Below, one piece after another: positions 23,092 to 23,174 of a stretch of DNA of 64,000 bases (position 1 is the first letter of the stretch; every line of letters begins with the position of its first letter). The position numbers were made by a program, and so were the translations under genes. The notes under the pieces are model-generated. The model was not told the origin of the DNA, made no database searches, and saw only the letters and a program-made list of their open reading frames with translations. Origin of the DNA: a virus (taxonomy: Duplodnaviria > Heunggongvirae > Uroviricota > Caudoviricetes); IMG/VR virus record IMGVR_UViG_3300009500_000011, positions 104,585 to 168,584 of that record. One strand, 5' to 3'.

Positions 23092-23174
23092 GCTGGGGTG
23101 GCTCAGAGGCGACAGCGCCAGTTTTGTAAACTGGTATACAAACAACGTGGGTTCGAGTCCCACCCCCAGCCCCA
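23092..23174 (+). tRNA. tRNA-Thr(TGT) with 12-nt variable loop
   Basis: Acceptor GCTGGGG/CCCCAGC, arm CCAGT-TTTGTAA-ACTGG. Unpaired variable region TATACAAACAAC. T arm GTGGG-TTCGAGT-CCCAC, CCA. 83 nt. Confidence 0.7.

Follow-up and report, generated by a model that had tools for sequence, protein, structure and literature searches.

We report that a 64,000-nucleotide (nt) stretch of a Caudoviricetes virus genome (IMG/VR record IMGVR_UViG_3300009500_000011, positions 104,585 to 168,584; hereafter the window) carries an intact transfer RNA (tRNA) gene, tRNA-Thr(UGU), with an unpaired variable loop of 12 nt. Judged from its sequence and from those of its relatives, the gene probably encodes a working elongator tRNA-Thr(UGU) in a tRNA-rich phage of low G+C content (GC), probably a jumbo phage. 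It belongs to a family of tRNAs with long variable regions that is present both in phages and on chromosomes of Vulcanimicrobiota; the loop itself is conserved within this family, while the stems covary. The parts of the gene are as follows (bp, base pairs).

23092..23174, plus strand: tRNA-Thr(UGU) gene, 80 nt followed by an encoded CCA (23172-23174), found with ARAGORN and with the Rfam model RF00005
23092-23098 / 23164-23170, plus strand: acceptor stem GCUGGGG/CCCCAGC, 7 bp, with discriminator C at 23171
23101..23116, plus strand: D arm GCUC-AGAGGCGA-CAGC, three pairs and a C13-C22 mismatch
23118..23134, plus strand: anticodon arm CCAGU-UUUGUAA-ACUGG, anticodon UGU at 23125-23127
23135..23146, plus strand: variable loop UAUACAAACAAC, 12 nt, unpaired, G-free
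23147..23163, plus strand: T arm GUGGG-UUCGAGU-CCCAC, 5-bp stem

RF00005 matches the gene with 57.1 bits (E 8.8e-12; gathering score 29) over model positions 1-71, and in this alignment nine of the 12 loop nucleotides are placed as an insertion in the variable region with all arms intact. With a 5-bp anticodon stem the loop UAUACAAACAAC cannot pair with itself; ARAGORN gives 11 nt for the same loop because it adds a G26-U44 pair. An earlier reading made from the sequence alone (the sequence-only reading) had described an 83-nt gene with a 12-nt unpaired variable loop, and this description holds: both programs find it, the cloverleaf is complete, and the covariance model and RNAalifold confine the extra nucleotides to the variable region, so that neither the D arm nor the anticodon arm absorbs them. 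The same reading had called the tRNA class I, which the length of the loop does not fit, class I tRNAs having variable loops of 4-5 nt (PMC7609411). The length is that of class II (at least 10 nt; 12 nt here and 11 nt in the tRNA-Val(UAC) discussed below); the stem-loop and the Leu, Ser or Tyr identity of class II are lacking, the loop being unpaired in the consensus fold and the identity Thr, and relatives with a stem-loop exist.

The anticodon loop UUUGUAA has 7 nt and includes U33 and A37. A Tyr-like anticodon loop shifted by one base (CUGUAAA instead of UUUGUAA) was considered and dropped, as the 31-39 pair covaries; it is represented by six pair types across the family, which therefore fixes the anticodon loop at 7 nt. 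An intron within the variable loop was discarded on general grounds: 12 nt is below the size of any self-splicing intron, and we know of no bacterial mechanism that excises inserts from variable loops.

Threonine identity in Escherichia coli is set by G1-C72, C2-G71, G35 and U36. The window gene has both acceptor pairs together with an NGU anticodon, as expected of a threonine isoacceptor, and the GC start is common to the three tRNA-Thr genes of the window and to all long-loop Thr relatives. We infer that the transcript would be processed as an ordinary tRNA whose CCA end is encoded by the gene, and that the host threonyl-tRNA synthetase (ThrRS) would probably charge it through these four elements. 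The mature tRNA would then decode ACA, which is the most common threonine codon in the open reading frames (ORFs) of the window (41%; the valine codon GUA accounts for 28% of its set), and no other tRNA of the window reads ACA. In the folded molecule the final C of the loop could form the Levitt pair G15-C48 with G15, and approximately seven extra bases would bulge from the elbow at the site where class II variable arms emerge, leaving the L-shape undisturbed. Identity determinants of tRNAs are generally acceptor-stem pairs and anticodon bases, and position 73 carries little weight for threonine (PMC9976931).

For the family as a whole we defined a core scaffold consisting of the D loop AGYGGCGA, the variable loop N-A-U-A-C-A-A-A-C-A-Y-C and the T arm GUGGGUUCGAGUCCCAC. 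The window tRNA-Thr agrees with it in the D loop (AGAGGCGA), in 11 of the 12 loop positions and in an identical T arm; its D loop is of the AGNGGCGA type, common to the long-loop family and the tRNA-Tyr of the phage. Viral contigs were scanned in three ways. The first scan combined a UGU anticodon loop, a long spacing and the exact T arm, and returned 17 stretches, 13 of which are tRNA-Thr(UGU) genes of 82-91 nt; most of these viral long-loop Thr(UGU) have a variable stem of 3-4 bp with a tetraloop. The second left out the anticodon (D-loop GGCGA, long spacing, T arm) and gave at least 120 stretches which, among the matches listed, are mainly Lys(UUU), Leu(UAA), Thr(UGU) and Lys(CUU). The third, based on the loop tail and the T arm, gave 71 stretches; the tRNAs with the unpaired loop among them are 30 different Lys(UUU) as well as Lys(CUU), Thr(UGU), Thr(CGU), Gly(UCC), Met and Cys tRNAs. 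Many of the long-loop matches are on contigs of 250-580 kb.

Alignment of 46 members shows all seven acceptor pairs intact in every member (46/46) with up to six pair types per position, and the anticodon stem is paired and covaries in the same manner. Conservation in sequence is seen in the T arm, the variable loop and the D loop, the last with invariant A14, G15, G18, G19, C, G and A21. The variable loops are nearly free of G (8 G in 532 nt) and their last base, C, is invariant; since loop positions 1-7 were in no search pattern, the conservation of these positions is independent evidence. The RNAalifold consensus of 12 Thr-type relatives is a cloverleaf whose variable loop of 12 columns is unpaired, and 14 of its 20 pairs show compensatory double changes. 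Finally, a profile hidden Markov model (HMM) was built from 44 tRNAs with a long unpaired loop, all from outside the window (window sequences excluded). Applied to the window it ranks tRNA-Thr first (63.5 bits) and tRNA-Val second (48.6 bits), followed by tRNA-Tyr as the next-best full-length match (24.9 bits) and Lys(CUU) (17.6 bits).

The scaffold represents a widespread structural subclass in which class I identities (mainly Lys and Thr; fewer Val, Gly, Cys, Met and Asn) are combined with a variable region of class II size, the latter being either a Tyr-like short stem-loop or a conserved, A/C-rich, unpaired loop of 11-12 nt. This loop is always accompanied by the D loop and the T arm of the core scaffold. 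Canonical tRNA-Thr(UGU), as in E. coli thrU, T4 and T5, has a variable loop of 4-5 nt. The window tRNA resembles it in the UGU anticodon within a U33...A37 loop, in G1-C72/C2-G71, in the 7/5 arrangement of acceptor and T stems and in the standard T loop, and differs from it in the 12-nt variable loop, the D stem of three pairs and the Tyr-type D loop. With bacterial tRNA-Tyr it shares the GCAUAGCGGCGAUUGC-type D arm, and stem-loop members of the family have the geometry of the Tyr variable arm (1 nt, a 3-4-bp stem, a tetraloop and 3 nt). Unlike tRNA-Tyr, it has the anticodon and acceptor identity of Thr, a GC start and discriminator C instead of A73, and the variable stem is replaced by an unpaired loop. 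The ancestor might have been a tRNA-Tyr-like class II tRNA in which anticodon and acceptor identity were exchanged; the D arm, the HMM ranking and the 1-nt/stem/3-nt geometry found in stem-loop members all suggest this. A long variable region on tRNAs with anticodons other than Leu, Ser or Tyr is also a feature of allo-tRNAs and of nematode nev-tRNAs and eukaryotic nov-tRNAs (Hamashima et al., cited in PMC5389517). In allo-tRNAs the acceptor/T arrangement is 8/4 or 9/3, the variable arm is helical and the identity is Ser (Mukai et al. 2017, PMC5389517); the window tRNA-Thr, in contrast, has a 7-bp acceptor stem, a 5-bp T stem, an unpaired loop conserved in sequence, and identity elements that agree with its anticodon.

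The sequence-only reading had also taken the scaffold to be phage-specific, which is not borne out, as the same long-loop tRNA-Thr(UGU) is chromosomal in Vulcanimicrobiota/Eremiobacterota. When 185,579 species genomes were scanned with the Thr pattern, which required the exact T arm and may therefore miss other phyla, 14 matches were obtained. Eleven are labelled Vulcanimicrobiota/Eremiobacterota and include two complete chromosomes. Two are labelled Rhodospirillales, with a tRNA-Thr(UGU) that equals that of the Vulcanimicrobiota locus L142 except for the called 3'-end length and with the same tRNA-Tyr gene; the last, an Actinomycetota contig, has no tRNA inside the match. In Vulcanimicrobiota the long-loop gene is situated approximately 100 nt from a tRNA-Tyr/Gly(UCC)/Thr(GGU) cluster, and the surrounding genes are ordinary cellular ones, e.g. 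those for a sigma factor and malate synthase. E. coli thrU likewise adjoins tRNA-Tyr, tRNA-Gly and tRNA-Thr(GGU). The Vulcanimicrobiota loops include TATACAAACACC, CACACAAACACC, AATACAAACATC and AATACCACACC, and the anticodon arm of the window tRNA-Thr is found unchanged in five of these loci (L141, L142, L144, L146 and L147). To judge from these copies, the scaffold is restricted neither to phages nor to the genome of the window phage. Across loci L140-L153 the variable region of tRNA-Thr(UGU) is 11-16 nt in all sampled members, either unpaired and A/C-rich or a short stem-loop, and the tRNAs that adjoin the long-loop gene are canonical.

The nearest relatives of the window tRNA-Thr are the Vulcanimicrobiota tRNA-Thr(UGU) genes of L142 and L146 (86% identity), followed by a copy on the viral contig L098 (84%), the tRNA-Thr of an uncultured 642-kb phage (83.6%) and an annotated tRNA-Thr of the cultured 469-kb Sinorhizobium phage Phosso (83.5%). 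Phosso (L154, PV764938.1) has an 83-nt long-loop tRNA-Thr(UGU) at 456178-456260 with the variable loop GAUUCAAACACC and, at 461179-461254, a canonical 76-nt tRNA-Thr(UGU). Having both forms in a cultured jumbo phage, it offers a ready experimental system.

According to the textbook view, long variable regions in bacteria are confined to tRNA-Leu, Ser, Tyr and Sec. A conserved unpaired loop of 11-12 nt on Thr-, Lys- and Val-type tRNAs in dozens of large phage genomes departs from this view. It provides a natural test of how far ThrRS, the lysyl- and valyl-tRNA synthetases, EF-Tu and the ribosome tolerate an enlarged variable region, and it is a reminder that sorting into class I and II by length can mislead the annotation of phage tRNAs. 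The scaffold might also be of use as a marker that links phages to hosts. In the open-access literature, including PMC7609411 and PMC9976931, we found no description of Thr, Lys or Val tRNAs with long variable loops in bacteria or phages, although an earlier description is possible.

The isoacceptors affected overlap with known targets of PARIS and PrrC, which leads to a testable idea about escape from tRNA-targeting immunity. The large variable region could make these tRNAs poor substrates for tRNA-cleaving immune nucleases such as PrrC, PARIS AriB and RloC, so that they would replace host tRNAs lost to cleavage and would themselves still be charged and used. We regard this as a tentative and rather doubtful proposal; it is an addition to the reading of the gene as a working tRNA-Thr and is compatible with it. 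Like the PARIS-neutralising tRNAs of T5, the window tRNA-Thr is phage-encoded, represents one of the same isoacceptors and is part of a large tRNA set (PMC11464382, PMC12409363), and a comparable role as nuclease-resistant substitute is possible. Lys(UUU), Thr(UGU) and Asn(GUU) are the three main targets, and infection is rescued by the T5 variants of these tRNAs (PMC12409363). On the viral scaffold Lys(UUU) anticodons predominate; next come Lys(CUU), Thr(UGU), Thr(CGU), Met and Asn. Among by-catch tRNAs of the fetched viral loci, to which none of the scan patterns could apply, a long variable region is present in 47 of 384 class I tRNAs that decode ANN codons and in 20 of the 628 remaining ones (odds ratio 4.2; p = 4e-8, to be taken as an indication only, since the sequences are related). 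Some phages have a canonical and a long-loop tRNA with one and the same anticodon, namely Thr(UGU) in Phosso and Met, Glu, Asp and Asn in L156, L157 and L160. The window also encodes an Rnl1-type RNA ligase, a Thg1-like enzyme and a nucleotidyltransferase, i.e. functions in tRNA repair and maintenance.

Other observations speak against a role in defence. The form is an ordinary chromosomal tRNA-Thr(UGU) in Vulcanimicrobiota, where there is no obvious need to evade the cell's own nucleases; UAAUC at positions 36-40, which AriB recognises, is kept in many long-loop Lys(UUU); and no nuclease is known to target the Val(UAC) and Gly(UCC) members. The T5 variants differ from the window tRNA-Thr in that they escape through substitutions in the anticodon stem (positions 39 and 41 of tRNA-Lys(UUU); PMC11464382, PMC12409363), the distinguishing feature of the window tRNA being its variable loop. 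As a conjecture of low probability we also put forward that D loop, long variable loop and T arm constitute a portable elbow cassette, and hence an unrecognised structural class of bacterial and phage elongator tRNAs. Phages would use it mainly on ANN decoders (Lys, Thr, Asn, Met, Ile), thereby blocking nucleases that grip the anticodon stem or the elbow, and Vulcanimicrobiota would have fixed the same form in tRNA-Thr(UGU).

The second long-loop gene of the window is a tRNA-Val(UAC).

58131..58213, plus strand: tRNA-Val(UAC), 83 nt (80 nt and CCA), found with ARAGORN; anticodon at 58165-58167, discriminator A
58175-58185, plus strand: variable loop CAUACCACAUC of tRNA-Val, 11 nt, incapable of self-pairing

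RF00005 detects tRNA-Val only when the region is searched alone, with 34.5 bits. Its acceptor and D stems are joined by 3 nt, not by 2 nt as in tRNA-Thr, for which reason the acceptor register is shifted in the Rfam alignment and, in part, the score is low. The sequence-only reading had suggested that Thr(UGU) and Val(UAC) derive from one long-loop tRNA that was duplicated in this phage and then switched its anticodon. Much of what it had noted about the pair was correct, i.e. the two 83-nt lengths, the unpaired variable regions (with the refinement that the Val loop has 11 nt) and the relatedness of these regions, which are identical in 8 of 12 positions. The two tRNAs stand well apart from the other window tRNAs in the HMM scores given above and are reciprocal nearest neighbours among the 32 tRNAs of the window (68% identity, rank 3 of 496 pairs). 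Their T arms (GTGGG-TTCGAGT-CCCAC) are identical, as claimed, but this is no exclusive feature of the pair: Leu(AAG) at 27321 and most members of the family have the same T arm, and Leu(CAA), Leu(UAG) and Lys(CUU) have nearly identical ones. By itself the similarity of Thr and Val within the window is modest support; the strong support for a common scaffold is the profile built outside the window.

A recent local duplication is nevertheless improbable. Far closer relatives are found in other genomes, at 86, 84 and 83.5% for Thr (see above) and, for Val, at 82% among viral long-loop tRNA-Lys(UUU) genes and 78% among rare metagenomic Val(UAC) genes with 9-nt variable loops. The connectors (2 vs 3 nt), the D stems and the acceptor stems all differ, which places Thr and Val on different sub-scaffolds, and 35 kb separate the two genes. 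In addition, the Val loop CATACCACATC is exactly that of a tRNA-Thr(CGU) on the 436-kb viral contig L121, and the Thr loop TATACAAACAAC exactly that of a viral tRNA-Lys(CUU) in L130; the scaffold is therefore older than the genome of the window phage. As a recent event, duplication within this phage is largely refuted. What stands of the earlier proposal is a common scaffold with different anticodons: Thr and Val share an old and widespread scaffold and do not stem from a recent duplication in the window phage.

Several points count against a working tRNA-Thr. Position 11 of the loop is A and not Y, the sole case among the 46 members; the D stem has the C13-C22 mismatch; tolerance of a 12-nt variable loop by ThrRS is assumed; and the apparent conservation of T arm and loop tail is inflated, because all collection scans demanded an exact T arm or loop tail. 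Folded alone by minimum free energy, the sequence also does not form a cloverleaf, as is common for tRNAs; we dropped this fold, since a cloverleaf with compensatory support is obtained from the covariance model as well as from the consensus fold. The mismatch and the atypical position 11, together with the variable stem and tetraloop of most phage long-loop Thr(UGU) that the window copy lacks, could be taken to mean that a former class II-type tRNA is decaying into a non-functional or poorly functional pseudogene. This is very unlikely, because the unpaired A/C-rich loop is itself conserved, over dozens of genomes, several anticodons and chromosomal bacterial copies. Furthermore, the remaining stems are intact, the invariant tRNA bases and CCA are kept, and no other tRNA of the window serves the commonest threonine codon of the phage.

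A recoding tRNA, mischarged by the seryl-, leucyl- or tyrosyl-tRNA synthetase and inserting another amino acid at ACA or GUA, as proposed for allo-tRNAs and nematode nev-tRNAs, might be suspected from the class II-length variable region, the Tyr-like D loop and the fact that the seryl enzyme recognises chiefly the variable arm (PMC9976931), yet it is the least credible explanation, because the loop offers the seryl enzyme no helix and C73 is the discriminator (A73 is required for Leu and Tyr, G73 preferred for Ser; PMC9976931), while G1-C72, C2-G71, G35 and U36 suit ThrRS, the 7/5 arrangement is unlike the 8/4 or 9/3 of allo-tRNAs, and a bacterial phylum has the same form as its chromosomal tRNA-Thr(UGU) beside a tRNA-Tyr/Gly cluster.

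The window has a GC of 32.6%, and all called ORFs and all 32 tRNAs are on the plus strand. Its proteins match phage families, among them a DnaG-type primase and ribonucleotide reductase. Further matches are to a T4 Rnl1-type RNA ligase, a Thg1-like tRNA-His guanylyltransferase, a nucleotidyltransferase, an RNase H/exoribonuclease-like protein (Rv2179c/RNase H-like 3'-5' exoribonuclease) and a Ro60/TROVE protein with a vWA domain; the genes for these RNA and tRNA maintenance products, at 11631-12935, 13436-14197, 24447-24935, 31183-32001 and 45439-47205, are interspersed with the tRNAs. No member of the Y-RNA family was found in the window at the Rfam gathering threshold. These features indicate that the window is part of a tRNA-rich, low-GC phage, probably a jumbo phage. 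Searches for close phage relatives gave no match with megablast of 21500-25500 against GenBank phages, with tblastn using the 1191-residue ORF, or with a viral-contig scan seeded with the protein of the neighbouring vWA-domain ORF, and only scattered weak matches when all window ORFs were compared by tblastn with the approximately 140 fetched loci. An assignment of the host from tRNA similarity was considered and dropped, given 86% identity to Vulcanimicrobiota vs 84% to other phages and a window GC of 32%.

Around the tRNA-Thr gene (22900-23420) Rfam matches were at chance level only, a scan for promoters and terminators gave background level, and the folding of both flanks is unremarkable. 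Directly upstream, at 23017-23079, two G+C-rich hairpins (CGUUGGU...ACCAACG and GAAUGAUGAC...GUUGUCAUUC) lie in an otherwise A+T-rich spacer; they have a fold z-score of -1.8 and no Rfam match.

Further tRNAs of the window with long variable arms include the following.

17138..17224, plus strand: tRNA-Tyr(GUA), an ordinary class II tRNA; D arm GCAUAGCGGCGAUUGC, variable arm of 1 nt, stem and 3 nt
25104..25188, plus strand: tRNA-Lys(CUU), 85 nt; 4-bp variable stem, GAAA loop and 3 unpaired nt; Rfam 55.7 bits
58686-58776, plus strand: tRNA-Arg(ACG), 91 nt; variable arm of approximately 19 nt with a GCC-GCAA-GGC hairpin; Rfam 49.4 bits

Among the ordinary class II tRNAs of the window, tRNA-Tyr(GUA) is nearest to the scaffold. 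In tRNA-Lys(CUU) the long variable region takes the stem-loop form and the T arm is a related one; this architecture recurs in the viral Lys(CUU) of L114, L116 and L139. Both tRNA-Lys(CUU) and tRNA-Arg(ACG) place class I anticodons on class II-like arms. In the by-catch of viral loci (e.g. L156, L157, L160 and L190), 17 of 27 distinct tRNA-Ile(UAU) sequences have a variable arm of 20-24 nt. Conversely, tRNA-Leu(UAG) at 25198-25274 (77 nt) has a 5-nt variable loop and lacks the class II arm; such 5-nt loops are common in Leu tRNAs of viral loci (14 of 45 Leu(UAA) and 14 of 34 Leu(UAG)).

Two ARAGORN calls are absent from the Rfam matches at gathering threshold and are likely degenerate copies: a 67-nt Tyr(GUA)-like sequence at 17242-17308, whose acceptor stem is mismatched and whose D arm is tiny, and a Gln(CUG) at 18606-18677 without encoded CCA. 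The tRNA-like sequence at 18948-19021 (Rfam 35.2 bits) has an irregular acceptor stem and an anticodon loop of 8 nt (ARAGORN 'atcg'); it could be a defective copy or else a tRNA of the quadruplet or frameshift type.

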